Below, one piece after another: positions 13,441 through 38,324 of a DNA stretch of 38,808 nucleotides. The DNA is from an uncultured Frankiaceae bacterium (lineage in GTDB: Bacteria > Actinomycetota > Actinomycetes > JAFAQI01), in the NCBI GenBank assembly GCA_964395425.1, contig CAYNDD010000004.1, positions 1 through 38,808 of the forward strand, given 5' to 3'. The position numbers were made by a program, and so were the translations under genes. How positions within the stretch are numbered: position 1 is the first letter of the stretch; every line of letters begins with the position of its first letter. The notes beneath the pieces were generated by a model. That model saw nothing but the letters and a program-made list of their open reading frames with translations, was not told the origin of the DNA and did no database searches.

Positions 13441-13485
13441 TTGTCAAAGCGTCTCGACTCTTCTAGTTTGAACGTTCAGTCAAAC
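13441..13485 (+). promoter_or_regulatory. Promoter-operator cassette P1 (drives the aminotransferase/importer operon)
   Basis: TTGTCA (13441-13446), a 17-nt spacer, TAGTTT (13464-13469), and the inverted repeat GTTTGAACGTTCAGTC (13466-13481). The downstream ATG is at 13501. Near-identical to P2 and P3. Confidence 0.6.
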
Positions 13486-13500
13486 CCCACATCGGAGCCC

Positions 13501-14922
13501 ATGGTGTCCGTCCACACCGAACCCGTCCCCGACATCTCCGTCGTGCTCGAGCAGGTCATCGCCGAGCAGGAACGGCGGTTCATCGAGCGCCAGCCGCGCT
13601 CAGCCGCGCTCAGCGCCCGGGCCGCCTCCTCGCTGGCCGGTGGGGTGACCTCCAGCTGGCAGATCACCCGGCCCCAGGCGGTCTGGCTGGCCGAAGGATC
13701 CGGGTCGACGATCATCGATGTCGACGGCAACACCTACGTCGACCTGCACGGCGGCTACGGTGCCGCGCTGGCCGGCCACGCTCACCCCGCCATCGTCGAG
13801 GCGGTGCGCGCCCAGGTGGCGCACGGCACCCACTTCGCCCAGCCGACCGAGACCGCGATCGTCGTCGCCGAGGAGCTCTCGCGCCGGTTCGGCCTGCCGC
13901 TGTGGCGGTTCGGCAACTCCGGCACCGAGGCCACGATGGACGCCGTCCACATCATGCGCGCGGTCACCGGGCGCGACCTGATCATCAAGGTCGAGGGCTG
14001 CTACCACGGTCATCACGACTCGGTGCAGGTGTCGGTCACCCCCGAGGAGGACGAGGTCGGCGACGCCGCGCGGCCCAACCAGGTCCCGGCGAGCAGCGGC
14101 ATCCCGTCCGCGATCACCGATCTGACGCTCGTCGTCAGCTTCAACGACCTTCCCGGTCTGGCGTCGCTGCTCGAGGACTACGACGGCAAGGTCGCCGGCA
14201 TGATCGTGGAGCCGATCATGATGAACGCCGGCATCATCACTCCCGACCCGGGCTATCTCGCCGGGGCCAAGGAGCTGCTCCACGCGCATGGCGCCCTGCT
14301 CGCCTTCGACGAGGTCAAGACCGGTCTCACCGCCGGACCGTCCGGTGCGACCGGCCTGGTCGGCGTCACCCCGGACATCGTCTGCCTGGCCAAGGCGATC
14401 GGCGGCGGGGTCGCGTCCGCGGCCGTCGGCGGGACCGCTGAGGTCATGGAGCACGTCGCGAACGGCGACTACGAGCAGGTCGGCACCTTCAACGGCAACC
14501 CGCTCGCGATGGCCGCGACCCGGGCGATGCTGACCGAGGTCGCGACCGATGAGGCCTACGCCCGGATCGACCGGCTTCGCGGCAAGGTGGTGAGCGAGTT
14601 CGAGCGGGTCATCGCCACCTACGACCTGGACGCCCACGTCGTCGCGGTCGGCGCCAAGGGCTGCGTGGTCTTCCGCCGCGAGCCGGTCCGCAACTACCGC
14701 GGGTTCCTCGGGATCGACGACCGGTACAACCACGCGCACTGGCTCTACCAGCACAACGGCGGGGTTTTCCTGCCGCCGTGGGGCAAGATCGAGCAATGGC
14801 TGATGTCGGTGCAGCACGACGACTCCGACATCGACCGGTTTGTGGGCAACTTCGAGCGTTGTGCGGCCGCCCTCACCGGCGGTGTTACGCAACCGACGCT
14901 TGCGACCGGGGGCACCGCGTAG
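13501..14922 (+). CDS. Class-III PLP-dependent aminotransferase (glutamate-1-semialdehyde aminomutase-like)
   Basis: ATG 13501 is preceded by GGAG (13493-13496). 473 aa. Recognisable motifs are NSGTEATMDAVHIMRAVTGR, FDEVKTG and the lysine-containing LAKAIGGG. Confidence 0.85.
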   Translation: MVSVHTEPVPDISVVLEQVIAEQERRFIERQPRSAALSARAASSLAGGVTSSWQITRPQAVWLAEGSGSTIIDVDGNTYVDLHGGYGAALAGHAHPAIVEAVRAQVAHGTHFAQPTETAIVVAEELSRRFGLPLWRFGNSGTEATMDAVHIMRAVTGRDLIIKVEGCYHGHHDSVQVSVTPEEDEVGDAARPNQVPASSGIPSAITDLTLVVSFNDLPGLASLLEDYDGKVAGMIVEPIMMNAGIITPDPGYLAGAKELLHAHGALLAFDEVKTGLTAGPSGATGLVGVTPDIVCLAKAIGGGVASAAVGGTAEVMEHVANGDYEQVGTFNGNPLAMAATRAMLTEVATDEAYARIDRLRGKVVSEFERVIATYDLDAHVVAVGAKGCVVFRREPVRNYRGFLGIDDRYNHAHWLYQHNGGVFLPPWGKIEQWLMSVQHDDSDIDRFVGNFERCAAALTGGVTQPTLATGGTA

Positions 14923-14954
14923 TTTCCTAACCCTGCTCCACCGTTGCGTCGTCC

Positions 14955-16259
14955 TTGGAGGTTGCGCTGACCCACCATCCTCGGCAAGGCTGGTCCGACT
15001 CCGATCCGTCGGCCGGCTTTTCCAGACGCGACCTGCTCAAGCGCGGCGCCGGACTCGGCGCGCTCGCCGGCCTGGCCCCGGTGGCCCTCGCGGCGTGCAG
15101 CGGCGGCACCGGCAACTCCACCGGCGGTGGCGGAGGTGGTGGCGGCAACACCGGCGGCAGCCTGCCTCGACCGGACAACCCGGTCACCTGGCCGATCTAC
15201 GCGGACAACAAGCCGATCGCGAACGGCCTTCCGCCGGAGCAGAATGCCACGCTGAAGGTCTACAACTGGGTCGCCTACGTCAACCCGCAGTCGATCAAGA
15301 ACTTCGAGAAGAAGTACAACTGCAAGGTCGAGGTCACGACCTTCAACACGATGGAAGAGGCGATGCAGAAGCTGCAGACCGGGCAGCTCAGCTTCGACGT
15401 CTTCATCCCCACCGTCGACCAGCTCGGTCCGCTGGTCGAGACCAAGCTGATCCGGCCGCTCAACCACAGCTACATCCCGAACATCTCCAACGCGTGGTCG
15501 GAGTTCGAGAACCCGTTCTATGACCAGAAGTGGCTGTACACCGTCCCCTACACGATCTACACGACCGGCATCTCGTGGCGCAACGACCACGTGCCGGGCA
15601 ACCCGGCGGCGCTGAAGAACCCCTGGTCGTTCCTCTGGCAGGGCAAGTACAAAGGCAAGGTCGCGATCCTCGACGACTACCGCGAGGGCCTCGGCCTCGG
15701 CCTGATGTACAACGGCCAGAGCGACCTCAACACGACCGACGCGACCTTGCTCACCGCGGCCGAGAAGTCCCTGCTCAACCTCGCCAAGCTGACCAACGTC
15801 CACATCGACAACAACGACTACACCAACATCCCGAGTGGTCAGATGTGGATCCACCACTCGTGGTCGGGTGACATCGCGGCGGCCGCGCAGTACATGCCGA
15901 AGGGCGTGTCGGTCGACGTGGTCAGCTACTGGTTCCCCGCGGACGGCCGCGGACCGGTCGCGAACGACACGATGGCGGTCCTGTCGGGTGGCAGCAACCC
16001 GGTGCTCGCGCACCTGTTCCTGAACTACTTCCTCAACACCGACAACGCGCTGGAGAACATCAGCTACAACGGCTACATGCAGCCGTTGTCAGGGGTCACG
16101 CCGCAGCGGCTGATCAAGGAGAAGATCCTTCCACCCAACCTGACGTCGACCGTGGTGCTCGAGTCGTACTTCTCCAAGGGCTACCACGAGCTCGAGCTGC
16201 CGGCGACGGCGAACACGACCTGGCAGCAGGACTGGCTCGACGTCACCCGCGGGGTCTAG
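14955..16259 (+). CDS. PotD/PotF-family polyamine-type ABC substrate-binding lipoprotein (Tat signal)
   Basis: The twin-arginine signal is SRRDLLKRGAGLGALAGLAPVALAAC, with lipobox LAAC followed by a Gly-rich linker. The YNWVAYV motif is typical of PotD/PotF. The start is uncertain: TTG 14955 or in-frame CTG 14967 after GGAGG. Confidence 0.85.
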   Translation: MEVALTHHPRQGWSDSDPSAGFSRRDLLKRGAGLGALAGLAPVALAACSGGTGNSTGGGGGGGGNTGGSLPRPDNPVTWPIYADNKPIANGLPPEQNATLKVYNWVAYVNPQSIKNFEKKYNCKVEVTTFNTMEEAMQKLQTGQLSFDVFIPTVDQLGPLVETKLIRPLNHSYIPNISNAWSEFENPFYDQKWLYTVPYTIYTTGISWRNDHVPGNPAALKNPWSFLWQGKYKGKVAILDDYREGLGLGLMYNGQSDLNTTDATLLTAAEKSLLNLAKLTNVHIDNNDYTNIPSGQMWIHHSWSGDIAAAAQYMPKGVSVDVVSYWFPADGRGPVANDTMAVLSGGSNPVLAHLFLNYFLNTDNALENISYNGYMQPLSGVTPQRLIKEKILPPNLTSTVVLESYFSKGYHELELPATANTTWQQDWLDVTRGV

Positions 16260-16265: not shown

Positions 16266-17189
16266 GTGTCCCGCTTCACCCGCTCGGGCGGACCGAAGGC
16301 GCCGCGCCGGATCCTGTGGGCCGGGCTGTCCACGCCGGCGATGCTGTGGCTCCTGGCGCTGTTCATCGTGCCGTTCTTCGTCGCGCTCGCGGTGGCCGGC
16401 GGGTCGATCAACCAGATCATCGGCACTCCGCAGCCGGCCTGGAACCCGCTCGACTGGAGCGGCGCGGCGTACCGCGCCGTGTTTCACGAGTTCACCGGCA
16501 CCGGCGCATTTCTCGGTCCGGAGGTGCTGCGCACCCTCGAGTACGTCGCGATCGCGGCGGTCCTGTCGCTGCTGATCGGCTATCCGGCCGCGTACTTCGT
16601 GAGCCGGTTCGCGGGCAAGAAGAAGGGCCTGCTGCTCGGCTTGCTGCTCGCGCCGTTCTGGGTCAGCTACATGATGCGGATGCTGGCCTGGATCGATCTC
16701 CTGCAGACCGACGGCTACGTCAACCGGCTCCTGGTCGACCTGCACCTGGTCTCGCACCCCGTCGTGTGGCTGGGCGGCAAGGCGACGACGGTCATCCTCG
16801 GGTTGGTCTACGGCTACATCCCGTATCTCATCCTGGTGCTGTTCGCGGGCCTCGACCGGATCGATCCGCACCTGATCGAGGCCGGCCGCGATCTCGGCCT
16901 GAGCCGGGTGCGGACCTTCACCAAGGTGACGCTGCCGCTGAGCCGGCAGGCGATCCTGACCGGGTTGCTGGTCACGGTGCTGCCGATGCTCGGTGACTAC
17001 TTCACCAACCAGATGCTCTCCGGCGCCACGAATACCGCGATGATCGGCAACACCATCGAGCAGCAGCTGTCGTCCACCCAGCTGCAGACCCAGGGCGCCT
17101 CGTTGTCGCTGATGATGCTCGGCGTGCTCGTGATCCCGATGCTCTACTACGTCATCGCGACCAACCGCGCCTCGCAGGCGAACGCATGA
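16266..17189 (+). CDS. ABC transporter permease (PotB-like)
   Basis: 307 aa, about 6 TM helices. The EAA loop is IEAGRDLGLSRVRTFTKVTLPLS. Confidence 0.85.
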   Translation: MSRFTRSGGPKAPRRILWAGLSTPAMLWLLALFIVPFFVALAVAGGSINQIIGTPQPAWNPLDWSGAAYRAVFHEFTGTGAFLGPEVLRTLEYVAIAAVLSLLIGYPAAYFVSRFAGKKKGLLLGLLLAPFWVSYMMRMLAWIDLLQTDGYVNRLLVDLHLVSHPVVWLGGKATTVILGLVYGYIPYLILVLFAGLDRIDPHLIEAGRDLGLSRVRTFTKVTLPLSRQAILTGLLVTVLPMLGDYFTNQMLSGATNTAMIGNTIEQQLSSTQLQTQGASLSLMMLGVLVIPMLYYVIATNRASQANA

Positions 17190-18124
17190 GCGACGCAGTG
17201 GTGGACACCACCGCGGCTGCACCCGCCGCAAAGACCGTGCCCGCACCCAAGCCGCGCCGGTTCATCGGCAACCCTTGGCGGCGGCCGGTGTTCCTCGAGG
17301 GCTTCACCTGGTTGTACGTCGCGTGGTCACTGCTGCCGATCGGGCTGGCCGTCCTCTTCTCGTTCAACAACGGCAAGTCGCAGAGCGTGTGGCAGGGCTT
17401 CTCGATGCGGTGGTACACCTCCGACCCGCTCAACTCCGTGCTGCACGACCCGATCCTCCATGCCGCAGTCGCGCAGACGTTGAAGCTCTCGCTCTACACG
17501 ACTGTGATCGCGGTGCCGCTCGGGGTTGCGTTCGCGATCGGTATCGATCGCTGGCGCACCCGCCCGGCGTCGGTGGCGAACTTCGTGATGGTGTTCTCGT
17601 TCGTGATCCCGGAGCTGATCTTCGGCGTCGCGTTGTTCTTTGTTTTCAACACGTTGTTCACCTCGGTCCACCTCGGCACGCTTGCCGAGACGCTCGGCTT
17701 GGTGACCTGGAACCTGAGCTGGCCGGCGATCATCGTGCGCGCCCGGCTGGTGTCGATCGGACGACAATACGAGGAGGCGGCCGCGGATCTCGGCGCGTCG
17801 AAGCTCGAGGCGGTCCGCCGGGTGCTGCTGCCGATGCTGGCGCCGGCGATCTTCGCCTCCGCCGTCCTGGTGTTCTCCGGCGTGATCGACGACTTCGTGT
17901 TGGTCGACCTGCTGTCGTCATCGGCGGCGACCCAGCCGATGTCGGTCATCATCTACTCGAACACCCACGGCGGGAACGGCGGCCCGGCGCTCAACGCGCT
18001 GGCCACGCTGATGCTGGTCTTCTCGTTCGTGGTGGCGGTGCTGGGCTACATCGGCTACCGCTGGATGACCCGCGGCGAGCGCGCCTCCCGCGAGGAGTCA
18101 TTGGCCAACTTCGCCGGCATCTGA
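17186..18124 (+). CDS. ABC transporter permease (PotC-like)
   Basis: 312 aa. It overlaps the upstream permease by 4 bp (ATGA). The EAA loop is YEEAAADLGASKLEAVRRVLLPML. No ATPase gene follows. Confidence 0.85.
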   Translation: MSDAVVDTTAAAPAAKTVPAPKPRRFIGNPWRRPVFLEGFTWLYVAWSLLPIGLAVLFSFNNGKSQSVWQGFSMRWYTSDPLNSVLHDPILHAAVAQTLKLSLYTTVIAVPLGVAFAIGIDRWRTRPASVANFVMVFSFVIPELIFGVALFFVFNTLFTSVHLGTLAETLGLVTWNLSWPAIIVRARLVSIGRQYEEAAADLGASKLEAVRRVLLPMLAPAIFASAVLVFSGVIDDFVLVDLLSSSAATQPMSVIIYSNTHGGNGGPALNALATLMLVFSFVVAVLGYIGYRWMTRGERASREESLANFAGI

Positions 18125-18160
18125 CCACCGCCCGCAATCGTCCAAATGGCAGACCGGTCG

Positions 18161-19543
18161 CTAGCGTCCCGCCCGGCGCGAGAGACGCAGGTCCGTGTAC
18201 AGCAGTTCGTAGCCAGGAGGAGCGGGCTCGTAGAAGGTGATTCGCGTTCCACCGGTGCTCGACGAGTCGTCGCGGGCGAGCAGGGCCGACTCGCCGATCG
18301 GCACCGCCCGGAGCTCGGAGACCTCCATCGTCGGCGGCACCAGACAGTTCTGCTGCTCGTCGAGGATCGGAGTGCTCCGCAGCACGAGGCCGCCATCGTC
18401 CGCCTCGATGTCAAGGCGAACGCCCTTCCTGAGGTACGTGCCGACAAAGGGCTGGAGGGCGACGTCACTCCGAGCGTCTCCCGACGCCACCGACGACGGA
18501 TACGGCTCCTTCGGCAGCAGGAACTCCTCCAGGTCCGCGAGCACTGTGCTGCCGAGGGAGCTGTTGACGAAGGCGATGGAAACCAGGTTGTCAGCGGGAG
18601 ACACGATCGCCTCGCACACTCCGCCGATAGAGCCGCCGCCGTGGGACAGCACGCGGCGGCCGTCTTCCCCGTGGTAACGCCACCCGAGGCCGAAACCCGA
18701 GCTCGGGCCGGTCGGGTCGGGGCTGGTCGGGGTCTGCATGGCCGCTGCCGCATCGGGGGTGAGGATCCGCGTGCCCTCGACGGATACGCCGCCGGCCAGA
18801 TGCATGCGCAGGAACCTGATGGTGTCCTCGACCGTGGTGATCAAGGTCGTCCCGGGCGCGGCCCACGCGCTGGGGTAGAGGAACTGCGGCGTCGCCTCGT
18901 ACGTACCGTCTTTCGTGGGGAAGCTGCCGACCGCGGTCCGGTACAACATGGCCTCACCGGCGGACAGGACGCTTCGCTCGAGGCCGAGCGGCTCGATGAC
19001 CCGTTCCTTGACCAACTCGTGAAAGTTCTTGCCGGTCACCCGCCGCAGGACCATTTCCATGACGATCCAGCCCACGTTGTTGTACGACGAGACGAGACCG
19101 GGCTCGGTCAGCTTGCCGGCCGACGCGATCGGCTCCAGGTAGTCCTCAACCCCGTCGGGGTAGTCGCGGCTGGCGGCGAAGAGGTCGCCGGTGTCGACAC
19201 CGCTGGAGTGGTTGAGGAGATGGCGGATCGTCAGCGTTCTGGCAACAGCAGGATCGGCACCGAACTGGATGTCGGGCGCGTAGGCGACGATCTTCTCGTC
19301 GAGGTCGAGCACGCCGTCGGCCACGAGAGTCATGACCACGGTCGTCACCCAGATCTTGGTGATGGAGCCGGTGATGAAGCCGGTGTCGACGGTCATCGGC
19401 TCACCTGTGTTCAGGTTGCGCACGCCGGCGGCCGCGGTCGCCAGCACGCCGTCCCGCCAGACCGCCGCGACCATCCCGGGGGCTGCGTGCTCGGCAGTCA
19501 GGCGCTCGACCTCCGCCTGTAGCTGCTCCGACGTCATGGCCAT
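18161..19543 (-). CDS. Beta-lactamase-fold serine hydrolase (class C / D-aminopeptidase / DD-peptidase-like) with an extra C-terminal domain
   Basis: 460 aa. Motifs are SxxK (GSITK), YxN (SYNNVGW) and HGG (LSHGGGSIGG). It is the last gene of the peptide-importer operon, and AAAGGAA precedes ATG 19543. Confidence 0.8.
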   Translation of the reverse strand: MAMTSEQLQAEVERLTAEHAAPGMVAAVWRDGVLATAAAGVRNLNTGEPMTVDTGFITGSITKIWVTTVVMTLVADGVLDLDEKIVAYAPDIQFGADPAVARTLTIRHLLNHSSGVDTGDLFAASRDYPDGVEDYLEPIASAGKLTEPGLVSSYNNVGWIVMEMVLRRVTGKNFHELVKERVIEPLGLERSVLSAGEAMLYRTAVGSFPTKDGTYEATPQFLYPSAWAAPGTTLITTVEDTIRFLRMHLAGGVSVEGTRILTPDAAAAMQTPTSPDPTGPSSGFGLGWRYHGEDGRRVLSHGGGSIGGVCEAIVSPADNLVSIAFVNSSLGSTVLADLEEFLLPKEPYPSSVASGDARSDVALQPFVGTYLRKGVRLDIEADDGGLVLRSTPILDEQQNCLVPPTMEVSELRAVPIGESALLARDDSSSTGGTRITFYEPAPPGYELLYTDLRLSRRAGR

Positions 19544-19545
19544 GC

Positions 19546-21429
19546 CTATTCCTTTCTTGTCAGCGCGCCGCTGCTCGCCACATGACCAGGTGGGCTCGAC
19601 GTCAACCAGGATTGATCGGCTCGAGGTACCGACTTCAGCAGGTCGACCGTGTAAGGGTCCTTGGGGCCGTCCAGCACCTGCTCGGTTGGACCGGACTCGA
19701 CGACACGACCACGGTGCATGACGTAGAGGTAGTCGGAGACCTGCCGCACGATCGACAGATCATGGGTGATGAACAGGTAGCCGAGGCCGCGGTCGACGTG
19801 CAGCCGACGGATGAGGTTCAGAATCTGAGCCTGGACGGAGACATCGAGCGCGGATACAGGCTCGTCACAGACCAGCAACCTCGGCTCCGTCGCGAGGGCC
19901 CGCGCGATCGCCACCCGTTGCCGCATCCCTCCGGAGAGCGCGACCGGGCGGAGCTCTGCATACGACTGCGGAAGGCCGACTTCGCTGAGCAGGTCTGCCA
20001 CCCGTTGACCGACGTTCCGCGCGCGGCGGGAGCGGGTGGTGATCGCCTCGGCGATGGTCCAGCCGATGCTTCGCATCGGATCCAGGCTCGAGTAGGGGTC
20101 CTGAAAGATGATCTGGACGCTGCCGCGAAGCTTCCGGAGATCGGCGCGACCCAGTGCCGACCAGTCCGTGGCGTCGACACCGTCGATCGTGATCGTGCCT
20201 GCCGAAGCGCGCTCGAGGCCGACGAGCAGGCGGGCGAGCGTGGTCTTGCCGGACCCGGACTCGCCGACGAGGCCGACGCACTCGTTCTCGCCGACGCTGA
20301 GCGACACCTCGTCCAATGCCCGGTGCGTCGTCCGGCCGGAGTGGACGAACTCCTTCGACACCGCTCTGACGTCGATGAGTCGGCTCGTCAAGCGATCCGG
20401 CTGCCGGGGTGCGGCACCCGCCACCGCCTGGCGCCGAACCGCGGCCAGCTCAGCTCGAATGGCCGGCAGTCGAACGCAGGCCGATTGACGGTCGCCCTCA
20501 ATGGTGGACAGCGACACCGGGCCGTTGCTGCAGATCTCCGTCGCCCACTGACAACGGTCCACAAACGGGCAGCGATTTGTTACGGCGTCCGGGTTCGGCA
20601 CCGCTCCTGGAATAGAGAACATCGTGGCCACGCGATGGTCCAGCGGAGGCTCGGACAGGAGCAACCCCTGGGTGTAAGGGTGCAACGGCTCCGCGTCGAG
20701 CTCAGCGGGCTTCCCCACCTCTACGACCGTGCCCGCGTAGAGGACGTAGATCCGATCGCACATCGCGAACGCCACCCGCAGGTCATGGGTGATCAGGACC
20801 AGGCCCATGCCCCTCGTCGCTTGGATTTGCTTGATCAGCGAAAGCGTCTCCCGCTGAGTCGTGACGTCGAGAGCCGTCGATGGTTCGTCGGCGATGAGGA
20901 TCTCCGGGTCGCGAGCGAGGGCGGCCGCAATACCCACCCGCTGTCGCATGCCGCCGGAGAGTTGGAAGGGATAGCGATCGGCGGCGGCCGGATCGTGGAT
21001 CCCGACTTCGGCCAGCCGGCGGAGGACCTCCGCGCGCCGTGCGTTGCGGTCGAGACGCCGCTGCGTTCGCAGTGACTCGCCGAGAATGCTTGCGCATCGC
21101 AGCACCGGGTTCAGCATCGTGAACGGGTCTTGCAGAATGAGGCCGATCTCCGTGCCCCGAACGCCTCGCCACGCGCGTTCGGTCAAGTCAAGAAGGTTTC
21201 GGTTCCGGTAGCGAATCTCGCCCGAGGCCGAGAGGCCGCGCGGAAGCAGCCCCGTGATGGCTCGTGCCGTCATGGACTTGCCGCTTCCCGACTCGCCGAC
21301 GATCCCAACCGACTCGCCCCTCGCCACCGCGAGGTTTACGCCCGAGACGATCGCTTCGAGGCGTCCTTCCCGGACGCGGTCGATGCGCAGGTCGACGACC
21401 TCGAGGGCATTCCCCGCGGTGTCGGTCAT
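19546..21429 (-). CDS. Fused double ABC ATPase (DppD-DppF type) of a peptide importer
   Basis: I call ATG 21429, which overlaps the upstream permease stop (ATGA). 627 aa. Two nucleotide-binding domains are present: GESGSGKS...LSGGMRQR...LIADEPSTALD and GESGSGKTT...LSGGMRQR...LVCDEPVSALD. The 951-aa ORF in the track is an out-of-context 5' extension. Confidence 0.9.
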   Translation of the reverse strand: MTDTAGNALEVVDLRIDRVREGRLEAIVSGVNLAVARGESVGIVGESGSGKSMTARAITGLLPRGLSASGEIRYRNRNLLDLTERAWRGVRGTEIGLILQDPFTMLNPVLRCASILGESLRTQRRLDRNARRAEVLRRLAEVGIHDPAAADRYPFQLSGGMRQRVGIAAALARDPEILIADEPSTALDVTTQRETLSLIKQIQATRGMGLVLITHDLRVAFAMCDRIYVLYAGTVVEVGKPAELDAEPLHPYTQGLLLSEPPLDHRVATMFSIPGAVPNPDAVTNRCPFVDRCQWATEICSNGPVSLSTIEGDRQSACVRLPAIRAELAAVRRQAVAGAAPRQPDRLTSRLIDVRAVSKEFVHSGRTTHRALDEVSLSVGENECVGLVGESGSGKTTLARLLVGLERASAGTITIDGVDATDWSALGRADLRKLRGSVQIIFQDPYSSLDPMRSIGWTIAEAITTRSRRARNVGQRVADLLSEVGLPQSYAELRPVALSGGMRQRVAIARALATEPRLLVCDEPVSALDVSVQAQILNLIRRLHVDRGLGYLFITHDLSIVRQVSDYLYVMHRGRVVESGPTEQVLDGPKDPYTVDLLKSVPRADQSWLTSSPPGHVASSGALTRKE

Positions 21430-23264: not shown

Positions 23265-23319
23265 GTACGCCTCCTTCAGCCGCCATCATGCGGCCTGAAG
23301 GTGTCGCGACGACACCGCC

Positions 23320-27733: not shown

Positions 27734-27740
27734 GCGACCC

Positions 27741-28937: not shown

Positions 28938-28987
28938 TGACGCGCCGCCCGAGCCCGTCGCCTCGACCGAAGCGTGAGCCACCGCGT

Positions 28988-30217: not shown

Positions 30218-30261
30218 GTGAATGACTTTAGGAACCGGGTCTGACAGTTTTCGGGCCAGAA

Positions 30262-30314
30262 AACCGTTGTGAACAAACAAAAAACAAGCAATTCGTGTCC
30301 ACAACTGTGGACAC
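30262..30314 (-). terminator. Possible terminator of tetR-potA: 20-bp palindrome followed by a T-rich tract
   Basis: On the minus-strand RNA the sequence reads GTGTCCACA-GT-TGTGGACAC (30295-30314), then GAATTGC, then TTGTTTTTTGTTTGTT. It lies 64 nt after the potA-like stop. The 2-nt loop and 7-nt gap are non-canonical. It could instead be an operator for the HNH gene. Confidence 0.35.
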
Positions 30315-30377
30315 GATCACCACCATCCACAGAACCCAGGCGAGCCCTTGACGATCAACCAGCGTGTCTGCCCGGCG

Positions 30378-31524: not shown

Positions 31525-32226
31525 CTATGACGGGCGCGGGGACCGCGGCGCCTGACCCACTCGCTGCCGGCGCCCGCGGGGCTTGGGCGACCAGCTGAAC
31601 CCGAGTTGGCCGGCGGCGAACTCCATGCTGAGTCGGAAGGTCCTCTCGTTGTCGACGACCGGGTCACACAGTGCAATCTGGATGGCGAATCCGTCAAGGA
31701 GTGCGGACAGCAGAATCGAGAACGAGTCCGCGTCGATCGCGGCGAACTCGCCCGATGCCTGCCCCTCGGTGACGAGGTCGACAATGGTCTGGCGCCAGCG
31801 CTCGTCGAACTCGCGGCGGACCGCGGCCACCTCGGGATGCCGTGCTGCCTGCGCCCACAGGTCGAGCCAGAGCGTCCACGACACCGGGTCGCCCTCTTCT
31901 TCCGGCATGCAGGTCATCGCGACCAGCTCTTCGAGCCGGCCCGCGGCGGTGGGGATGCTCGCGATCCTGGCGATGCCCTCGGCGTACCAGCGGTCTTCGG
32001 AGAGGCGGATCGCCTCGGTCAGCAGCTGGTCGCGGGTCTTGAAGTAGTAGATGACCAGGGCCGGGCTGGTGCCGGCCCGCGCCGCGACGTCGGCGATCCG
32101 GGTCTCCGGGAAGCCGCGTTCGCCGATGACGGTCAGGGCGGCCTCGAGCAGCTGGTCGCGGCGGCCGTCGGGCGGGCTCGCGGCACTCGGGTCGCCGGCT
32201 TCCGGGGCAAGCGCGCTCATCTGCAC
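31525..32226 (-). CDS. TetR/AcrR-family transcriptional regulator
   Basis: 233 aa, starting at GTG 32226 or ATG 32220. The HTH is RDQLLEAALTVIGERGFPETRIADVAARAGTSPALVIYYFKTRDQLL. It lies 16 nt upstream of the ATPase gene on the same strand. Confidence 0.85.
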   Translation of the reverse strand: MQMSALAPEAGDPSAASPPDGRRDQLLEAALTVIGERGFPETRIADVAARAGTSPALVIYYFKTRDQLLTEAIRLSEDRWYAEGIARIASIPTAAGRLEELVAMTCMPEEEGDPVSWTLWLDLWAQAARHPEVAAVRREFDERWRQTIVDLVTEGQASGEFAAIDADSFSILLSALLDGFAIQIALCDPVVDNERTFRLSMEFAAGQLGFSWSPKPRGRRQRVGQAPRSPRPS

Positions 32227-32301: not shown

Positions 32302-32346
32302 TTGTCGCGGACCTTATCAGTTCCTAGACTGAACATTCAGTCAAAC
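32302..32346 (+). promoter_or_regulatory. Promoter-operator cassette P2 (between tetR and the COG1233 oxidoreductase)
   Basis: TTGTCG (32302-32307), a 17-nt spacer, TAGACT (32325-32330), and the inverted repeat GACTGAACATTCAGTC (32327-32342) with perfect 6-bp arms. Confidence 0.6.
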
Positions 32347-32350: not shown

Positions 32351-32388
32351 AGATCCTGTCAGCAGGCAGACAGATCCTGTCAGCAGGC
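32351..32388 (+). repeat. Tandem 21-bp-period direct repeat, AGATCCTGTCAGCAGGC x2, in the predicted 5' leader
   Basis: Identical 17-mers lie at 32351-32367 and 32372-32388. Each contains CCTG-TCAG-CAGG. A third GAGATCC sits at 32409-32415 and overlaps the Shine-Dalgarno GGAGA. Confidence 0.8.
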
Positions 32389-32417: not shown

Positions 32418-34073
32418 ATGACCAGCAGTAGTTACGACGCGATCGTCGTCGGTGGCGGACACAACGGCCTGGTGGCCGCGGCATACCTGGCCCGCAACGG
32501 CGCCAACACGGTGGTGCTGGAGTCCCGGCACAAGACCGGTGGCGCGGCGACCACTGAGTCGCCGTGGCCGGACGCGCCGGAGTTCAAGGTGACCCGGCTG
32601 TCCTATGTCATGAGCCTGCTGCCACCGACGATCATGCGCGAGCTGCAGCTGGAGCGCCACGGCTACAAGGTCCACCCGATGGGCCCCTACTACCAGGCCT
32701 TCGCCGACGGCGGATCGATCAAGATCCTCGCCGACGACGCGAAGCGCAACCACGAAGAGATCTCCAAGTGGTCCAAGAAGGACGCCGACGCGATGGTCAA
32801 ATGGGACGCCTGGATGGGCGGGCTCGCCGACGTCCTCGGCCCGCTGCTGCTCACCGTCCCGCCGAAGCTGGGCTCCAAGCGCCCGGCCGACCTGGTCGAC
32901 ACCCTGCGGCTGGCCTGGCGGCATCGCGGCGTCGACGTCCGCACGATCGGTGACGTCACCCGGCTGATGGGGATGAGCATCGCCGACCTGCTCGACGACT
33001 GGTTCGAGTCGCCGCAGGTCAAGGGGGCGATGGCGGTCAACGGCGTCATCGGCACCTGGGCCGGACCGTGCGAGCCGGGTACGGCGTACGTCATGGCGCA
33101 CCACTCGATCGGTGACATCGGCGACGGCCATCTCGGCAACTGGGGCTTCCCGGAGGGCGGGATGGGCGGGGTCGCGACCGCGATCGAGAACTCGGCCCGC
33201 AGCTTCGGCGCGGAGATCCGGCTCAACGCGCCGGTCTCGCGCCTGCTGGTCGAGAACGGCCGGGTCCAGGGTGCCGTGCTGGCCAACGGCGACGAGCTGC
33301 GCGCCCCCGTGGTGGTCTCGAGTCTGCACCCGCGCACTGCCTTCCTCGACCATGTCGGCCGGGCCAACCTGCCGTCGGACTTCGTCCGCGACATCGAGAC
33401 CTGGAAGACCCGCAGCGGGGTCGTGAAGATCAACTTGGCGCTCGCCGAGCTGCCCGACTTCATCGCCGACCCGGGCACCAACCTGCAGGAGCACCACACC
33501 GGCTCGGTGGAGATGGCGCCCTCGGTCGAATACATGGAGCAGGCCTTCCAGGACGCCCGCAACGGCAAGGCTGCGGTCCGGCCGTTCAGCGACGGCGTGA
33601 TCCCGTCGACCTTCGACCGCTCGCTGTGCCCGGAGGGCACGCACATCATGTCGCTGTTCACCCAGTGGGTGCCTGAGACGTGGAGCGAGGAGCCGCACGC
33701 CGAGGAGATCGAGGCGTACGCCGACCGGATGATCGACTGCTACAACGAGCTCGCCCCGAACTTCAAGAGCTCGATCCTGCATCGCGACGTGGTCAGCCCG
33801 TACGAGATGGAGCAGGAGTACGGGCTGGTCGGCGGCAACATCTTCCACGGCGAGCTCTCGATCGAGCAGCTGTTCCACATGCGCCCGGCGCCGGGCTATG
33901 CCGACTACCGCACGCCGGTCAAGGGTCTGTACAACGCCAGCTCGGCGACCCACGCCGGCGGCGGCGTGTGCGGCATTCCCGGCTGGCAGGCGGCCAAGGC
34001 CGCGATCCGTGACGCCAAGGTGGCGGCCGGCCGGCAGCGGCTGTCCGGTCTGCTGCCGTCCAAGCGGGGGTGA
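32418..34073 (+). CDS. NAD(P)/FAD-dependent oxidoreductase, phytoene-desaturase-like (COG1233-type); paralogue of 6923-8374
   Basis: 551 aa. The N-terminus is YDAIVVGGGHNGLVAAAYLARNGANTVVLESRHKTGGAA. GGAGA precedes ATG 32418. Confidence 0.8.
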   Translation: MTSSSYDAIVVGGGHNGLVAAAYLARNGANTVVLESRHKTGGAATTESPWPDAPEFKVTRLSYVMSLLPPTIMRELQLERHGYKVHPMGPYYQAFADGGSIKILADDAKRNHEEISKWSKKDADAMVKWDAWMGGLADVLGPLLLTVPPKLGSKRPADLVDTLRLAWRHRGVDVRTIGDVTRLMGMSIADLLDDWFESPQVKGAMAVNGVIGTWAGPCEPGTAYVMAHHSIGDIGDGHLGNWGFPEGGMGGVATAIENSARSFGAEIRLNAPVSRLLVENGRVQGAVLANGDELRAPVVVSSLHPRTAFLDHVGRANLPSDFVRDIETWKTRSGVVKINLALAELPDFIADPGTNLQEHHTGSVEMAPSVEYMEQAFQDARNGKAAVRPFSDGVIPSTFDRSLCPEGTHIMSLFTQWVPETWSEEPHAEEIEAYADRMIDCYNELAPNFKSSILHRDVVSPYEMEQEYGLVGGNIFHGELSIEQLFHMRPAPGYADYRTPVKGLYNASSATHAGGGVCGIPGWQAAKAAIRDAKVAAGRQRLSGLLPSKRG

Positions 34074-36175
34074 GCGCGCCCGCGCGCGAGTCCGGCCTCC
34101 TGACCTGCTTGCTCGAGCCCCGCAGCATCGCCGTCGTCGGCGCCAGCCCGCGGCCGGGCAGTTTCGGCGAGCGGATGGTGACCGAGGTCCTGCGCAGCTC
34201 TGCGGAGGTCAGTGTCCACCTGGTCAACCCGCGGTACGCCGACCTCGCCGGTCGCCGTTGCTATCCCTCGCTCGCCGAGATCGGCGACGCGATCGACCTG
34301 GTCCTGCTCGGCGTCGGTGATCCGGCCCTCGAGGCCGAGCTTTCGCTCGTGGCGAAGCGCGGCGACCGCGCGGCGGTGATCTTCGGCAATGCCTACGAGC
34401 CACCGGCTGCGGGGGTCATCCCGCTGCGGACCCGGCTCGCGACCATCGCCCGCGAGGCATCGATGCAGCTGTGCGGCGGCGGCTGCATGGGCTACGTCAA
34501 CGTCGCCAAGGGGATCCGCGCGATTGGCTATCTCGAGCCCGACCCGATCCCGGCCGGGCCGGTGGCGATGGTGACGCACTCGGGATCGGTCTTCTCGGCC
34601 GTCCTGCGGGCCCGTCGCGGCTTGGGCTTCACCCTCGCGGTGTCGTCCGGCCAGGAGCTGGTGACGACCACCGCGGCCTACCTCGACTACGCCCTCGGGC
34701 TGCCCCAGACCGAGGTGATCGCGCTCGTCCTGGAGGCGATGCGGGACACCGCGGCGCTGCGCGAGTCGCTGTCTGCGGCGGCGGCGCGCGACATCCCGGT
34801 CGTGGTGTTGCCGGTTGGCACGAGCGAGCGGGGGGCCTCGATGGTGGCCGCGCACTCTGGCGCGGTCGCCGGCGGCACCGCCGCCTGGGAGGCACTGGCC
34901 GATGCCCACGGCCTGCACCTGGTGTCCGACCTCGGTGAGCTGCTCGACACGGTCGAGCTGTTCGCGGCCGGCCGGCGGGCGCGACCGAGAGGACGTAGCG
35001 GCGGCGGGCTGGCCGCGGTGCTCGACTCCGGTGCGGAGCGGGCCCTGATCGTCGACGTGGCGGCGGCGGTTGGGGTGCCGTTCGCCGAGATCTCGGCTGA
35101 GACAACGTCGCGCATCGCGCAGCGGCTCGATCCCGGCCTGGTCGCGACCAACCCGCTCGACGTCTGGGGCAACGGCGCCGACACCGAGGGCCTGTTCGGC
35201 GATGTGCTGATCGACCTGGCCCGCGATCCGGCGGTCCAGGCGGTCGCCCTCGCGGTCGACCTGGTCGAGGAGCTCGACGGTGACGACTCCTACCGCAATG
35301 CGGTCCGCCGCTGCGCGACGGCGACCGATCTCCCGGTCGTCGTCCTCAGTCACCTGCCGTCGGCGCTCGACCTCGGCGCGGCCGCGGCGCTTCGGGGGGC
35401 AGGCGTACCGGTGCTCGAGGGCACCCGAAGCGGCCTGCGGGCGCTCGGACATCTCCTCCGGCACGCCGACCGGCTACCGCCGGTGCCAGGCCCTGCGGTC
35501 GACACCGCGCGCCGGGATCGCTGGCGCGCGCGTCTGGCCGACGGTCCGTTGCCCGCGGCGGAGGGCTTCCGGTTGTTGGCCGACTACGGGCTCGAGGTGG
35601 CCGAGATCCGCCCGGCCGATCACGAAGGCGCCGTGCTCGCCGCCGCGTCGGAGCTCGGTTACCCAGTCGTTCTCAAGACCGACGAGGACATCGCGCACAA
35701 GACGGACGTCGGCGGGGTAGTCGTCGGGATCGGAGACGATCAGGAGCTGGTGGAGACCTACCGGGAGCTGGCCAGCCGGCTTGGTCCGCGGGTGATTGTG
35801 TGCCGGCAGGTCGCGCCGGGCGTCGAGGTGCTGGTCGGGGCGGTGCGCGACCCGAGTCTCGGCCTGCTGCTCGTGGTCGGCCCGGGTGGGGTGCTGGTCG
35901 AGTACGTCGCCGACCGGGCTGCGGCCCTGCCGCCGGCCGGCGCGGAGCATGCGCGGACCCTGCTCGGCCGGACCATGGTCGAGCGCCTGCTGCTCGAGCC
36001 CCGGCACGGTGCGGCCGCCGACATCGACGCCGTCGCCGCCGCGATCGCGGCGCTGTCACAGCTGGCGACCGAGCTCGGTGATTCACTCGACGCGATCGAG
36101 ATCAACCCGCTGGTGTGCAGCGCGGCCGGCGCGGTCGCGGTCGACGTCCACCTCGAGCAGACGAAGGCGTCCTAG
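34070..36175 (+). CDS. ADP-forming acyl-CoA synthetase family protein (CoA-binding + ligase-CoA + ATP-grasp domains)
   Basis: 701 aa. GTG 34070 overlaps the upstream TGA (GTGA). The N-terminal CoA-binding segment is LLEPRSIAVVGASPRPGSFG. The C-terminal ATP-grasp segment is LADYGLEVAEIRPADHEGAVLAAASELGYPVVLKTDEDIAHKTDVGGV. Confidence 0.8.
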   Translation: MSAPARESGLLTCLLEPRSIAVVGASPRPGSFGERMVTEVLRSSAEVSVHLVNPRYADLAGRRCYPSLAEIGDAIDLVLLGVGDPALEAELSLVAKRGDRAAVIFGNAYEPPAAGVIPLRTRLATIAREASMQLCGGGCMGYVNVAKGIRAIGYLEPDPIPAGPVAMVTHSGSVFSAVLRARRGLGFTLAVSSGQELVTTTAAYLDYALGLPQTEVIALVLEAMRDTAALRESLSAAAARDIPVVVLPVGTSERGASMVAAHSGAVAGGTAAWEALADAHGLHLVSDLGELLDTVELFAAGRRARPRGRSGGGLAAVLDSGAERALIVDVAAAVGVPFAEISAETTSRIAQRLDPGLVATNPLDVWGNGADTEGLFGDVLIDLARDPAVQAVALAVDLVEELDGDDSYRNAVRRCATATDLPVVVLSHLPSALDLGAAAALRGAGVPVLEGTRSGLRALGHLLRHADRLPPVPGPAVDTARRDRWRARLADGPLPAAEGFRLLADYGLEVAEIRPADHEGAVLAAASELGYPVVLKTDEDIAHKTDVGGVVVGIGDDQELVETYRELASRLGPRVIVCRQVAPGVEVLVGAVRDPSLGLLLVVGPGGVLVEYVADRAAALPPAGAEHARTLLGRTMVERLLLEPRHGAAADIDAVAAAIAALSQLATELGDSLDAIEINPLVCSAAGAVAVDVHLEQTKAS

Positions 36176-36696
36176 CCAGGGGTCTCGTCCAGGTCTTGCA
36201 AGGTGCCCACGATCAGCAGCCAGGCGCCGGACACGAAGAAGGAGAAGTTGACGATGAGGGCGATCGCGGCGACGTAGATCCCGGCGCGCGTGCCGTCGTA
36301 CAACAACAGCGCGGCGACGACCTGCCCCAGGTAGCAAACGCTCCCACCGACGATGCGGCTCGGACTGAGGGCATAGCGGCTGCTGTGCAGCCGGAAGGCC
36401 TGGACATACCCGTTGGTGTTGATCGCCCCGGCGATGGCCGCCACGAGCAGCCACTCGATCCCCAACGACCGATGGGTCTGGTGCCCCATCAGTGCAAAGG
36501 CGCAAAGAATGAACGCAGCGGTGAAGCCGGTGAGCATGTTGATGGCGCGGTACTTGTGCGTCGCGTCCGCCGTGACGACCCGTGAGTTGATCGTCATGGC
36601 CACAAAAACCAGTCCGGCCAACGTCGCAGAGCCAGTGCCTACCAGGACGAAGAAGTCCGTCCACTGCCGAGGGTCGTACCCCGCCGCCGCGAGCAC
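36172..36696 (-). CDS. Hypothetical integral membrane protein (about 5 TM helices)
   Basis: 174 aa with a GTG start 16 nt after the cupin stop. Hydrophobic helices run throughout. I recognise no family and see no clear RBS. Confidence 0.5.
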   Translation of the reverse strand: MLAAAGYDPRQWTDFFVLVGTGSATLAGLVFVAMTINSRVVTADATHKYRAINMLTGFTAAFILCAFALMGHQTHRSLGIEWLLVAAIAGAINTNGYVQAFRLHSSRYALSPSRIVGGSVCYLGQVVAALLLYDGTRAGIYVAAIALIVNFSFFVSGAWLLIVGTLQDLDETPG

Positions 36697-36712
36697 GGCG
36701 CAAGGCTAGCCG

Positions 36713-37075
36713 CTAGAAGATGACGTACAGCTTGCGCAGCGTCTCGTGGATCTGCCAGGTGCCGGCCCAGCCGCGCGGGAACACGACCGCATCGCCGGCG
36801 CCGACCTCAACCGGCTCGTTGCCCTCGCGGGTGACCGTCATCCGGCCGGAGATGATGTAGATCTCCTCGTGCGTTTCGAGCGTCCAGTACGACGGGCCGG
36901 GCGTGCACTCCCAGATCCCGACCTCGGCGTCGCCGTCCTTCCACAGCGTCAGGCCCGCGGTGGTCATCGGGGTGTTGTCCGGGTCGCTGGCCTCCTCGAG
37001 CGGGCCCCAGTCCTCGAGCTCGCTGCCGGCCGCGATGGCGTGCAGGTGGGGAGTGCCGGTGTCGACGTGGGTCAT
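36713..37075 (-). CDS. Small cupin-fold protein (DUF861/EutQ-like)
   Basis: 120 aa. Its ATG overlaps the stop of the upstream flavoenzyme (ATGA at 37072-37075). The cupin core is GIWECTPGPSYWTLETHEEIYIISGRMTVTREGNEPVEVGAGDAVVFPRGWAGTW. Confidence 0.7.
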   Translation of the reverse strand: MTHVDTGTPHLHAIAAGSELEDWGPLEEASDPDNTPMTTAGLTLWKDGDAEVGIWECTPGPSYWTLETHEEIYIISGRMTVTREGNEPVEVGAGDAVVFPRGWAGTWQIHETLRKLYVIF

Positions 37076-38280
37076 GTGGAGGAGGTCCTTTCCGGGAACG
37101 GCAGTGCGATCGGGTCGGCGGGAAGCTTGCTGCGGCCCTCGGCGTCGAACCGGTCGAGGCCGAGGTCGGTGCAGTCGGTGACGGACGTGGTGCCGGTCAG
37201 GGCCAGATCGGCGGCGGCCCGGGCCACGCCCGGCCCCCACATCATGCCGTGGCCACCAGGCGCGGCGACGGTCACGCCCCCGATCGGGCCGTCCGCGGTG
37301 ATGCCGGGGCCGAGGATCGGCAGGTGGTCGGGGGTGAAGTCGATGGTTGCCGCCCAGGCACGGCGCAGCGCGAGCTTCTCGGTCACCGGGACCAGCTCGG
37401 CGAGCCGCCCGCGCATCCGGTCGAGATAGGGAAGGTCGATCTCGGTGGCCTTGCCCTCGGGCTCGTCCGGATTGCTCATCCCGAACAGCAGGCCGCGTTC
37501 CTCCGCGCGCCAGTAGAGCCCGGCGACCAGGTCGAAGACCATCGGCAGCCGGCTCGGCTCGAAGTCCGGGTGGGGCTCGGTGACCGCGACCTGATGGCGG
37601 ACCCCGCCGACCGGGATCCGGATGCCGGCGAGCGCACCGACCGCGCGTAGCTTCGGGCCGCCGGTCAGGACCACCCGGTCGGTGGCGATCGGACCGGCCG
37701 AGGTCTCGACTCCGGTGACCGTGCCGGCGTCGGTCGCCAGCCCGGTGAAGGCGGTGTGCTCGTGGACGTCGACCCCGGCCTGCGCCATCGCGACGGCGTA
37801 GGCGAGCACGTTGCGCGGCGGGGTGATGTAGCCGTCTCCGTCGAAGTAGGTGCCGCCGAGGGTCATCCCGGGCGCCATCGTGGGGTTGACCCGGTCGGCC
37901 TCGTCCGGATCCAGCCACCTGACGTCGAGACCGGCCGCGCGCTGCATCTGCATCCGCGCTTCGGCGGCGACGAGGTCGTCGGGGGTGAAGCAGGGCAGGA
38001 AGTAGCCCTGCTGAGTGAAGCCGGAGTCGATCCCGATCTCATCGTGCTGCGAGCGGTAGAACGTGCGCGACCATTCGGCGAGCTCGACCGCCCAGCGGGT
38101 GCCACCCTGGCTGCGGACGATGCCGGCCGCCCGGCTGCTCGCGCCCTGGCCGAGCTGGTCCTTCTCCACCAGGACCACCCGGTCGAGCCCGCTGCGCTTG
38201 AGGAAATAGGCACACCAGGCACCGATGGTTCCGCCGCCGACGACGACGGCGTCGGCGGATTCGGGCAGGGTCGACGCCAT
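37072..38280 (-). CDS. FAD-dependent oxidoreductase (sarcosine-oxidase-beta / glycine-D-amino-acid-oxidase-like, COG0665-type)
   Basis: I call ATG 38280, giving MASTLPESADAVVVGGGTIGAWCAYFLKRSGLDRVVLVEKDQLGQGASSRAAG. 402 aa. The track ORF extends to 38628 but crosses the P3 operator and the divergent gene. Confidence 0.8.
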   Translation of the reverse strand: MASTLPESADAVVVGGGTIGAWCAYFLKRSGLDRVVLVEKDQLGQGASSRAAGIVRSQGGTRWAVELAEWSRTFYRSQHDEIGIDSGFTQQGYFLPCFTPDDLVAAEARMQMQRAAGLDVRWLDPDEADRVNPTMAPGMTLGGTYFDGDGYITPPRNVLAYAVAMAQAGVDVHEHTAFTGLATDAGTVTGVETSAGPIATDRVVLTGGPKLRAVGALAGIRIPVGGVRHQVAVTEPHPDFEPSRLPMVFDLVAGLYWRAEERGLLFGMSNPDEPEGKATEIDLPYLDRMRGRLAELVPVTEKLALRRAWAATIDFTPDHLPILGPGITADGPIGGVTVAAPGGHGMMWGPGVARAAADLALTGTTSVTDCTDLGLDRFDAEGRSKLPADPIALPFPERTSST

Positions 38281-38324
38281 TGGCACGGCGGGAACGCTCG
38301 CATAGACTGAACAGTCAGTCAAGG
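38280..38324 (+). promoter_or_regulatory. Promoter-operator cassette P3 (drives the acyl-CoA dehydrogenase)
   Basis: TTGGCA (38280-38285), a 17-nt spacer, TAGACT (38303-38308), and the inverted repeat GACTGAACAGTCAGTC (38305-38320) with perfect 6-bp arms. The ATG at 38343 is preceded by GAGGGGA. Confidence 0.6.

Follow-up and report, generated by a model that had tools for sequence, protein, structure and literature searches.

TetR-family proteins are mostly repressors. BetI, a choline-responsive member of the family, represses the bet genes, and in mycobacteria the TetR repressors KstR and KstR2 reportedly control cholesterol catabolism. Their palindrome at promoters is said to have been found by comparative genomics, the KstR motif being reported as TnnAACnnGTTnnA, and KstR is said to control dozens of genes. 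At the level of DNA recognition, the footprinted box of Ruegeria pomeroyi BetI1 is ATTGACG·CGTCAAT, and a second protein of this organism, BetI2, has two overlapping boxes with effector-dependent affinities (PMC12442346). Here we describe a BetI-like TetR regulator (gene 31525–32220, reverse strand) and four copies of one palindrome of about 22 bp in a 38,808-nucleotide stretch of DNA from an uncultured Frankiaceae bacterium (GenBank assembly GCA_964395425.1, contig CAYNDD010000004.1, positions 1 to 38,808), hereafter the window. The palindromes were found to be conserved, exclusively associated with one gene cluster and with tetR, and accompanied by conserved promoter-like elements. We propose that the four are operators of this TetR protein, which would repress a single catabolic cluster, and we give this predicted binding and repression a probability of roughly 80%.

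The window contains exactly four sites, with the consensus TTGACTGAAYRTTCAGTCTAG. Three of them belong to cassettes which the original prediction had described as promoter-operators, namely P1 (TTGTCA-17-TAGTTT at 13441–13469, core reaching 13485), P2 (TTGTCG-17-TAGACT at 32302–32330, core reaching 32346) and P3 (TTGGCA-17-TAGACT at 38280–38308, core reaching 38324), all on the forward strand. All three are real, and on reading the sequence their positions and hexamer-17-hexamer layout proved to be exactly as claimed. The same holds for the agreement of the 22-nt cores at 19 of 22 positions (P1 with P2, and P2 with P3) and for the location of the cassettes in divergent intergenic regions, in one orientation and 31–87 nt from the start codons; the individual distances from -10 hexamer to start codon are 31 nt for P1 (ATG 13501), 87 nt for P2 (ATG 32418) and 34 nt for P3 (ATG 38343). 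Each cassette had also been credited with the inverted repeat GACTGA-N4-TCAGTC, which is not the case for P1, where the repeat is imperfect because the left arm is degenerate (TTTGAA in place of GACTGA). Overlooked altogether was a fourth site, O4, GACTGACCATACAGTC at 13371–13386 (22-mer 13368–13389), which was found by a bare GACTG-N6-CAGTC search 80 bp from P1, on the opposite side of the same intergenic region.

With up to three mismatches permitted, a 20-nt pattern built from the cassettes, TAGACTGAACRTTCAGTCAA, matched P1, P2 and P3 and nothing else in the window, and it had no match in 100 dinucleotide-preserving shuffles. A weight matrix, proposed as a check with the original prediction, was built from 238 orthologous sites and scored the four window sites at 40.5 (O2, in P2), 36.5 (O3, in P3), 28.3 (O1, in P1) and 25.4 bits (O4). 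The next-best position in the window reached -8.0 bits and the best in 30 shuffles 7.2 bits; the scan leaves no grey zone between the four sites and the rest of the window. Since the window is 65–75% G+C, an A+T-rich palindrome of such length is not an effect of composition. The 17-nt spacers of P1, P2 and P3 are mutually dissimilar and the likeness is limited to the functional elements; the possibility that the cassettes are copies of a mobile repeat was rejected because the spacers are unrelated. A full-text literature search with TGAACGTTCA and six 12-mers returned primers and unrelated sequences only, and no relevant report of an actinobacterial cluster or regulon of this kind came up in keyword searches.

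The comparative set consisted of 79 tetR loci from species-level genomes (TetR 58–97% identical), fetched with an alignment of 25 TetR relatives and taken as 20-kb pieces; with the contigs of a motif-first scan, about 200 related soil-actinobacterial DNA stretches were compared. All 79 are metagenome-assembled genomes of uncultured soil Actinomycetota, bar one bin labelled Gemmatimonadota, and among them are Mycobacteriales, Frankiaceae, Streptosporangiaceae, Nocardioidaceae and Acidimicrobiales. The closest named relatives of the tetR locus of the window are labelled Mycobacteriales or plain Actinomycetota. TetR relatives number in the thousands in soil metagenomes and occur in 549 of about 185,000 species-level genomes.

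Of the 79 loci, 78 have a TTGACTGAAYGTTCAGTCTAG site with at most one mismatch 100–300 bp ahead of tetR. In the remaining one (L052) the COG1233 oxidoreductase gene and tetR are co-directional and the site is upstream of the pair, such that every orthologous tetR transcription unit has a site (79/79). With up to two mismatches the 79 loci contain 238 sites, 233 of which are less than 600 bp from a conserved cluster gene. From genome to genome they occupy the same four or five intergenic positions within this cluster, whose genes are conserved. According to tblastn, one operator separates the acyl-CoA dehydrogenase gene from the divergent pair for a SoxB-like oxidase and a cupin protein. Further along, the CoA ligase and COG1233 genes diverge across a second operator from tetR and the ATPase gene, and finally the unit of aminotransferase, binding-protein and permease genes, sometimes with an operator behind its first gene, diverges across one operator or two from the gene for a Rieske oxygenase. 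In 56 loci the aminotransferase gene has an orthologous site ahead of it. The information content is about 2 bits per operator column, against about 0–0.4 bits in the flanking intergenic DNA; the genomes also share the -35-like TTGnnn, the 17-nt spacing and TAGACT, but not the intergenic DNA around these elements.

As a control that started from the motif, the exact, gene-blind pattern TTGACTGAANNTTCAGTCTA was scanned over metagenome contigs, which returned 120 stretches. The original prediction had named random or intragenic occurrence of the motif as evidence against it; the scan landed almost only in the cluster, and the motif is neither randomly scattered nor intragenic. Of 662 first open reading frames (ORFs) flanking the sites in the motif-first and genome sets together, 568 fall in seven families, these being TetR, COG1233, aminotransferase, SoxB-like, acyl-CoA dehydrogenase, binding protein and Rieske, and in the metagenome scan all 34 informative COG1233-side sites have tetR opposite. 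The other first ORFs are mostly spurious or are lineage-specific genes divergent from the aminotransferase gene, for example those for an aldehyde dehydrogenase, a Zn-dependent alcohol dehydrogenase, an FMN-reductase-like protein and a purple acid phosphatase. Some Streptosporangiaceae-type loci have double operators, together with an extra aminotransferase/binding-protein operator which the window lacks; in one locus (L008, 19803–19837) two adjacent operators, 19 bp from start to start, precede the aminotransferase gene. Elsewhere (L175, 6677–6692) a perfect operator lies ahead of a gene for a 693-amino acid flavoprotein with old yellow enzyme (OYE) and Pyr_redox_2 domains, of the FadH/trimethylamine-dehydrogenase type, with no cluster gene within 12 kb of it.

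The cross-genome footprints allowed the relation of the palindrome to the predicted promoters to be defined. P1 (13441–13485, forward strand) would be the promoter of the aminotransferase-transporter operon, its operator O1 (13463–13484) spanning the -10 hexamer and the expected transcription start. P2 (32302–32346, forward strand) is the predicted promoter of the COG1233-CoA ligase operon, and its operator O2 (32324–32345) is common to the divergent tetR promoter. Toward COG1233, TTGtgg-17-TAGACT is conserved and the palindrome begins within the -10 hexamer. Toward tetR, a conserved tGnTAnnnT is found 9–11 nt past the operator in 70 loci; it is a predicted extended -10, corresponding to TGATAAGGT at 32311–32319 (reverse strand) in the window on the basis of conservation, and O2 would thus lie over the -35 region of the tetR promoter. 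P3 (38280–38324, forward strand), the putative promoter of the acyl-CoA dehydrogenase gene reported by the consensus scan, contains O3 (38302–38323); the -35 hexamer of this promoter and the start codon (38280) of the oxidoreductase gene that diverges from it overlap. In the direction of the acyl-CoA dehydrogenase gene, TTGgCA-17-TA(A/G)ACT is conserved in 38 loci; toward the oxidase gene, the operator arm TTGACT is followed 17 nt on by a conserved cAGCaT. A strict sigma-70 consensus scan picked up P3 and the promoter of the Rieske gene independently.

The two arms of the operator are not equivalent. At P2 the side facing the catabolic gene reads TAGAC in 68 of 70 loci and the other side TTGAC in 69 of 70, and at P3 the corresponding arms are TA[A/G]AC and TTGAC, each in 38/38. 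This asymmetry is a constraint beyond that of a symmetric protein site, and is best explained by one arm forming a -10 element and the other a -35-like element. At the Rieske-gene and binding-protein-gene sites both sides have TTGAC-type arms, without TAGACT. The latter sites constitute a fifth class, located between the aminotransferase and binding-protein genes in 38 loci, with the operator at the -35 region; this class is not present in the window, where these two genes are only 32 nt apart.

O4 (13368–13389, reverse strand) is a palindrome, TCTGACTGACCATACAGTCAGG, and an exact match to GACTG-N6-CAGTC, with the ATG of the Rieske oxygenase gene (13380) at its centre. The promoter predicted for this gene by the consensus scan, TGGACA-18-TATCCT (13387–13416, reverse strand), has a -10 hexamer ending 6 nt ahead of the ATG, which suggests that the messenger RNA is probably leaderless or near-leaderless, with its predicted start within O4. 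The arrangement TGGACA-17-TAGcCT, 7 nt and ATG is kept in 10 orthologous Rieske loci, and in other genomes an equivalent site, CTTGACTGTATGGTCAGTCAA, stands ahead of the Rieske gene, its centre being TATG[G/A]T in 11 of 11.

In the 5' leader of the COG1233 gene (32351–32388) an exact 17-nt direct repeat, AGATCCTGTCAGCAGGC, occurs twice with a period of 21 nt. The close relative L001 has a single copy, which indicates a recent tandem duplication in the window; the leader is not conserved in more distant genomes.

The regulator encoded beside O2 is a TetR-family protein with a BetI-type C-terminal domain, 231 amino acids from the ATG at 32220 (31525–32220, reverse strand). The original prediction gave the limits of the gene as 31525–32226; position 32226 is an in-frame GTG two codons upstream of that ATG. 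Pfam finds TetR_N at 47 bits (cut-off 24) and TetR_C_6 at 78.5 bits (cut-off 27). The best NCBIfam match is to BetI, with scores of 81.2 against a cut-off of 201.3 for TIGR03384 and 75.8 against 118 for NF001978, and the protein is 27% identical to E. coli BetI over its full length; it is BetI-like and not BetI, the resemblance being one of mechanism, not of membership. The E. coli betI-betT intergenic region carries ATTGGAC·GTTCAAT, and the half-site ACTGAAC of our operator equals the E. coli ATTGAAC at 6 of 7 positions. Many positions of the helix-turn-helix, including A49 and S52–F60, are invariant in 25 homologues of 64–87% overall identity, which parallels the near-invariant operator across two classes of Actinomycetota.

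TetR had been put forward as the probable controller of the palindromes and as the only adjacent regulator from a family that binds palindromes of about 16 bp. The former claim gains support from the 79/79 tetR units with a site, from the 34/34 COG1233-side sites and from the likeness to the betI box. As to the latter, TetR is the only regulator conserved with the sites in the 79 loci, but the window also encodes a GntR/FCD regulator (26034–26765) that is not conserved with them. This protein was rejected as the binder; it lies within a 12.3-kb insertion and is linked to tetR in 0 of 79 loci.

Based upon these data we propose the following scheme. A TetR dimer, or a pair of dimers, would occupy a site of about 20–22 bp, TTGACTGAAYRTTCAGTC(T/A)A, and so shut six transcription units of one catabolic cluster, namely Rieske; aminotransferase-binding protein-permeases; tetR-ATPase; COG1233-CoA ligase; SoxB-like oxidase-cupin; and acyl-CoA dehydrogenase. 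With its own unit in the regulon, the repressor would be autoregulated. At P1–P3 one operator arm would be the -10 hexamer (TAGACT), so that bound repressor would cover the -10 and the transcription start, while the other arm (TTGACT) would fall over the -35 region of the divergent promoter, that of tetR at P2 and that of the oxidase gene at P3. In the case of the Rieske gene, the centre of the operator would coincide with the start codon of a probably leaderless messenger. The effector releasing the repressor may be a small cationic molecule or a pathway intermediate (an imported amine or an acyl-CoA).

Several points weigh against this scheme. Binding, the effector, the points at which transcription starts and whether control is negative are deduced from sequence. 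The strict sigma-70 scan misses P1 and P2, each one match under the threshold, and the promoter status of these two therefore rests on cross-genome conservation. At tetR the spacing from TTGACT to the -10 is about 22–23 nt, with the operator over the -35 of an extended -10 promoter, and autorepression may be weak or differently tuned there. Two loci (L065 and L076, around 9835) have tetR and an operator with no other cluster gene within 10 kb; together with the isolated flavoprotein operator of L175 they suggest that the regulon may be split or extended in some genomes. The other genomes were represented by 20-kb pieces, so that the count of members covers those stretches. Finally, BetI-family regulation can be more complex, as the example of BetI2 illustrates.

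The palindrome might instead be bound by another transcription factor encoded elsewhere, with tetR merely one of its targets. The coverage of only 20–39 kb per genome leaves room for such a factor, and it would account for L065 and L076, where tetR and its site occur without nearby cluster genes. We nevertheless regard it as improbable, since TetR is the sole regulator conserved with the sites (the GntR protein being linked in none of the 79 loci), every tetR transcription unit has a site, the motif-first scan yields hardly anything but this cluster, contrary to what a global regulator would give, and the motif differs little from the box of BetI, the nearest characterised family. There is similarly little likelihood that TetR acts as an activator or dual regulator at some sites, for instance by an effector-dependent occupancy with opposite effects on tetR and on the catabolic genes, in the manner of BetI2. 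Such behaviour would find a precedent in R. pomeroyi, where BetI2 acts differently at overlapping boxes (PMC12442346), and the operator does lie at the -35 region at tetR and at the binding-protein-gene sites of other genomes. P1–P3 and the Rieske sites, on the other hand, cover the -10 and start, or the start codon, positions incompatible with activation, and repression is the general rule in the TetR family.

We consider it very improbable that the 22-mer, instead of being a repressor site, serves mainly as an RNA hairpin of the 5' leader or as a promoter element read by a sigma factor of its own. It does hold -10-like and -35-like hexamers, it could form a perfect hairpin, and its GAAC and CGTT recall promoter elements of the extracytoplasmic function (ECF) type; here, however, these two motifs directly adjoin instead of being separated by about 16 nt. 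The symmetrical conservation of the arms and the existence of two site classes without TAGACT suit a dimeric DNA-binding protein better than a sigma factor. With regard to a hairpin, no transcript would contain the whole structure, given that transcription is predicted to begin within the palindrome or, on the other strand, downstream of it; the arms are invariant, with no compensatory changes, and Rfam finds nothing at the operator positions. Binding of the palindromes by the BetI-like TetR as repressor is thus the reading that we retain.

The genes of the cluster were mapped from third-position G+C and from Pfam and NCBIfam scans. The Rieske gene (12154–13380, reverse strand) encodes a non-haem iron oxygenase alpha subunit of the CntA/GbcA/Stc2 group (Pfam Rieske and Ring_hydroxyl_A). 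Its best NCBIfam match is GbcA (195 bits, cut-off 670) and its best solved relatives are 3n0q, the carnitine monooxygenase CntA and the demethylase 3vca/4qup. On the forward strand follow the genes for a class-III aminotransferase (13501–14922; Pfam, NCBIfam and solved structures), a PotD/F-like solute-binding protein (14955–16259; NCBIfam and solved structures) and two permeases (16266–17189 and 17186–18124; Pfam and NCBIfam), all of which are linked to tetR in 53–59 of the 79 loci. The aminotransferase is of the GSA-aminomutase/beta-transaminase type according to solved structures and NCBIfam, and the binding protein is under the Pot cut-offs (PotF 81.6 against 636 bits, PotD 79.9 against 582 bits). 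The gene for a PotA-type ATP-binding cassette (ABC) transporter ATPase (30378–31508, reverse strand; Pfam ABC_tran and TOBE_2) exceeds the cut-off of the potA subfamily TIGR01187 (366.5 against 355.6 bits). In nearly all loci it is the next gene after tetR, and in the window its start is 17 nt past the tetR stop, from which we conclude that the two are probably co-transcribed.

To the right of P2 are a COG1233 (CrtI/CrtO-like) oxidoreductase dependent on flavin adenine dinucleotide (FAD; 32418–34073, forward strand; Pfam and NCBIfam) and an ADP/NDP-forming acyl-CoA synthetase, the CoA ligase (34070–36175, forward strand; Pfam CoA_binding_2, Succ_CoA_lig and ATP-grasp_5), whose genes overlap by 4 nt. 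On the reverse strand are genes for a SoxB/ThiO-like FAD oxidoreductase (37072–38280; Pfam), the closest solved relatives of which are the sarcosine oxidase beta subunit and dimethylglycine dehydrogenase, and for a Cupin_3 protein (36713–37075; Pfam). The acyl-CoA dehydrogenase gene (38343–38808, forward strand; Pfam Acyl-CoA_dh_N and Acyl-CoA_dh_M) is truncated by the end of the window. The full-length L001 protein has the acryloyl-CoA reductase AcrC as its best NCBIfam match (193 bits against a cut-off of 640), and the best solved relative of the dehydrogenase is CarC.

The original prediction had spoken of a regulon dispersed over 25 kb. Comparison with the relative L001 (TetR 97%, DNA 92–94% identical) corrects this picture. 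A 12.3-kb segment, window 18123–30429, is missing from L001; blastn shows the two sequences to be collinear on both sides of it, with about 30 bp at this point in L001. The regulon is spread over 25 kb in this genome because of this insertion, which is not part of the regulon and sits where the permease and ATPase genes converge with their 3' ends; the predicted regulon is one conserved catabolic cluster, and its dispersal is peculiar to this genome. The genes of the insertion (18161–30304) encode a beta-lactamase-family protein, a Dpp-type ABC transporter, an M19 dipeptidase, the GntR/FCD regulator, an ornithine cyclodeaminase-like protein, a second DAO-family protein and a DUF222 protein, and none of them is linked to tetR in the 79 loci. 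No transfer RNA genes or terminal repeats of the kind that would point to a mobile element were found at its ends. Window 36157–36711 (555 bp) is also missing from L001 and encodes a 174-amino acid predicted membrane protein (36172–36696, reverse strand), found in this genome only and lacking any Pfam or NCBIfam match. In other genomes a different ORF of about 180 amino acids, also without a Pfam match, occupies this position. The clusters of other genomes have variable genes in their gaps as well, coding for glutathione peroxidase, methyltransferases, an HTH/DUF5753 protein and methyladenine glycosylase; these were rejected as members since they are not conserved and look like unrelated insertions.

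Elsewhere in the window, a methyl-accepting chemotaxis protein gene is located at 3688–5238 (reverse strand). Rfam reports a match to ASdes, a mycobacterial antisense small RNA, at 11087–11154 (reverse strand; 44.9 bits, gathering score 40), lying antisense inside an acyl-ACP desaturase-like gene (10766–11710).

None of the enzymes passes an NCBIfam equivalog cut-off, and the pathway is therefore uncharacterised. The cluster appears to resemble those for catabolism of polyamines or onium compounds, as hinted at by the PotA-subfamily ATPase, the PotD/F-like binding protein, the aminotransferase of beta-transaminase-like type, the quaternary-amine-type Rieske oxygenase and the SoxB-like flavoprotein. 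In Acidimicrobiales relatives, moreover, an aldehyde dehydrogenase encoded behind an operator is over the aminobutyraldehyde dehydrogenase subfamily cut-off (638 against 615). Our guess is that a cationic amine is imported, transaminated and oxidised to an amino or onium acid, which is made into a CoA thioester from which the amine is eliminated.

The CoA ligase offers a further hint. Its closest solved structure is DddX of Psychrobacter sp. D2 (PDB 7cm9; E = 5.8e-71 over the full length, 29% identity), an ATP-dependent dimethylsulfoniopropionate (DMSP) lyase of the ACD superfamily which makes DMSP-CoA and eliminates dimethyl sulfide to give acryloyl-CoA (PMC8163506). The phosphohistidine H292 of DddX corresponds to H262 here, kept in 82/82 orthologues, and the cation-pi residue W391 to W366, kept in 77/78. 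The loop alignment around E432 and F435 is ambiguous; phmmer pairs them with D405 and Y408 (kept in 74/77 and 75/77, respectively), while BLAST pairs them with an upstream Glu and with Gly. Perhaps, and we consider this doubtful, the operator marks an uncharacterised route, widespread in uncultured soil Actinomycetota, in which the DddX-like ligase activates a beta-amino or onium carboxylate, the amine or sulfide is eliminated to leave acryloyl-CoA, the AcrC/CarC-like dehydrogenase handles the product and TetR senses the cationic substrate. Beta-alanine betaine, DMSP or a spermidine-derived carboxyethyl-polyamine might serve as the substrate of such a route. The Cupin_3 protein is without the HxH metal motif that is expected of cupin-type DMSP lyases. 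Actinobacteria that cleave DMSP with no known lyase gene have been noted as a gap (PMC8163506), and if the substrate were DMSP or a relative, the cluster could provide this activity.

The result is a clean, testable regulon hypothesis for a group of soil Actinomycetota represented solely by metagenome-assembled genomes, as it names one repressor, a nearly invariant operator of 20–22 bp and the predicted promoters, including that of one probably leaderless gene. As a search tag, the operator picks out seven core genes of an uncharacterised amine/onium pathway and accessory genes for an aminobutyraldehyde dehydrogenase, a Zn-dependent alcohol dehydrogenase, a flavin reductase-like protein and an OYE/FadH-type flavoprotein. 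Should its ligand be identified, the repressor-operator pair could be developed into a biosensor or an inducible switch for high-GC hosts. The control is of the textbook TetR type, and the general biological surprise is modest.

Of the described systems, BetI shares with our regulator the domain pair TetR_N and TetR_C_6, a gene divergent from its targets with one common operator region, and an operator without central spacer; the core TGAAC·GTTCA fits the E. coli box and resembles ATTGACG·CGTCAAT. It differs in the half-site, which here has C instead of T at position 2, and in the TTGAC/TAGAC flanks that the conserved site takes in here. The targets also differ, being here aminotransferase, oxygenase, oxidase and CoA-pathway genes; no betA, betB or betT counterpart (choline dehydrogenase, betaine aldehyde dehydrogenase or BCCT gene) occurs in the window or in the conserved cluster. 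KstR and KstR2 are comparable as actinobacterial TetR repressors of several units in one catabolic region, but differ in motif, C-terminal domain type and pathway, and here there are four to five operators per genome.

With regard to the pathway, the Pot/PatA-PatD polyamine system likewise has a potA-subfamily ATPase, a PotD/F-like binding protein and a class-III aminotransferase, whose gene heads the transporter operon. Here, however, the binding protein is far under the PotD/PotF cut-offs, the aminotransferase is not PatA/SpuC, and the Rieske, SoxB-like, COG1233, CoA ligase and acyl-CoA dehydrogenase genes are without counterpart in known polyamine routes. DddX has the same domain order as our ligase (CoA_binding, Succ_CoA_lig and ATP-grasp in one chain), and its authors noted a betaine- or polyamine-type transporter encoded near dddX (PMC8163506), as is also true here. 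Its Y181 and D208 are not conserved in our ligase, though, and the organisms are here from soil, with neighbouring genes that point to amines rather than to sulfonium compounds. The mechanism proposed is thus classical TetR-type occlusion, and what is new is the regulator-operator pair and the pathway that it marks.

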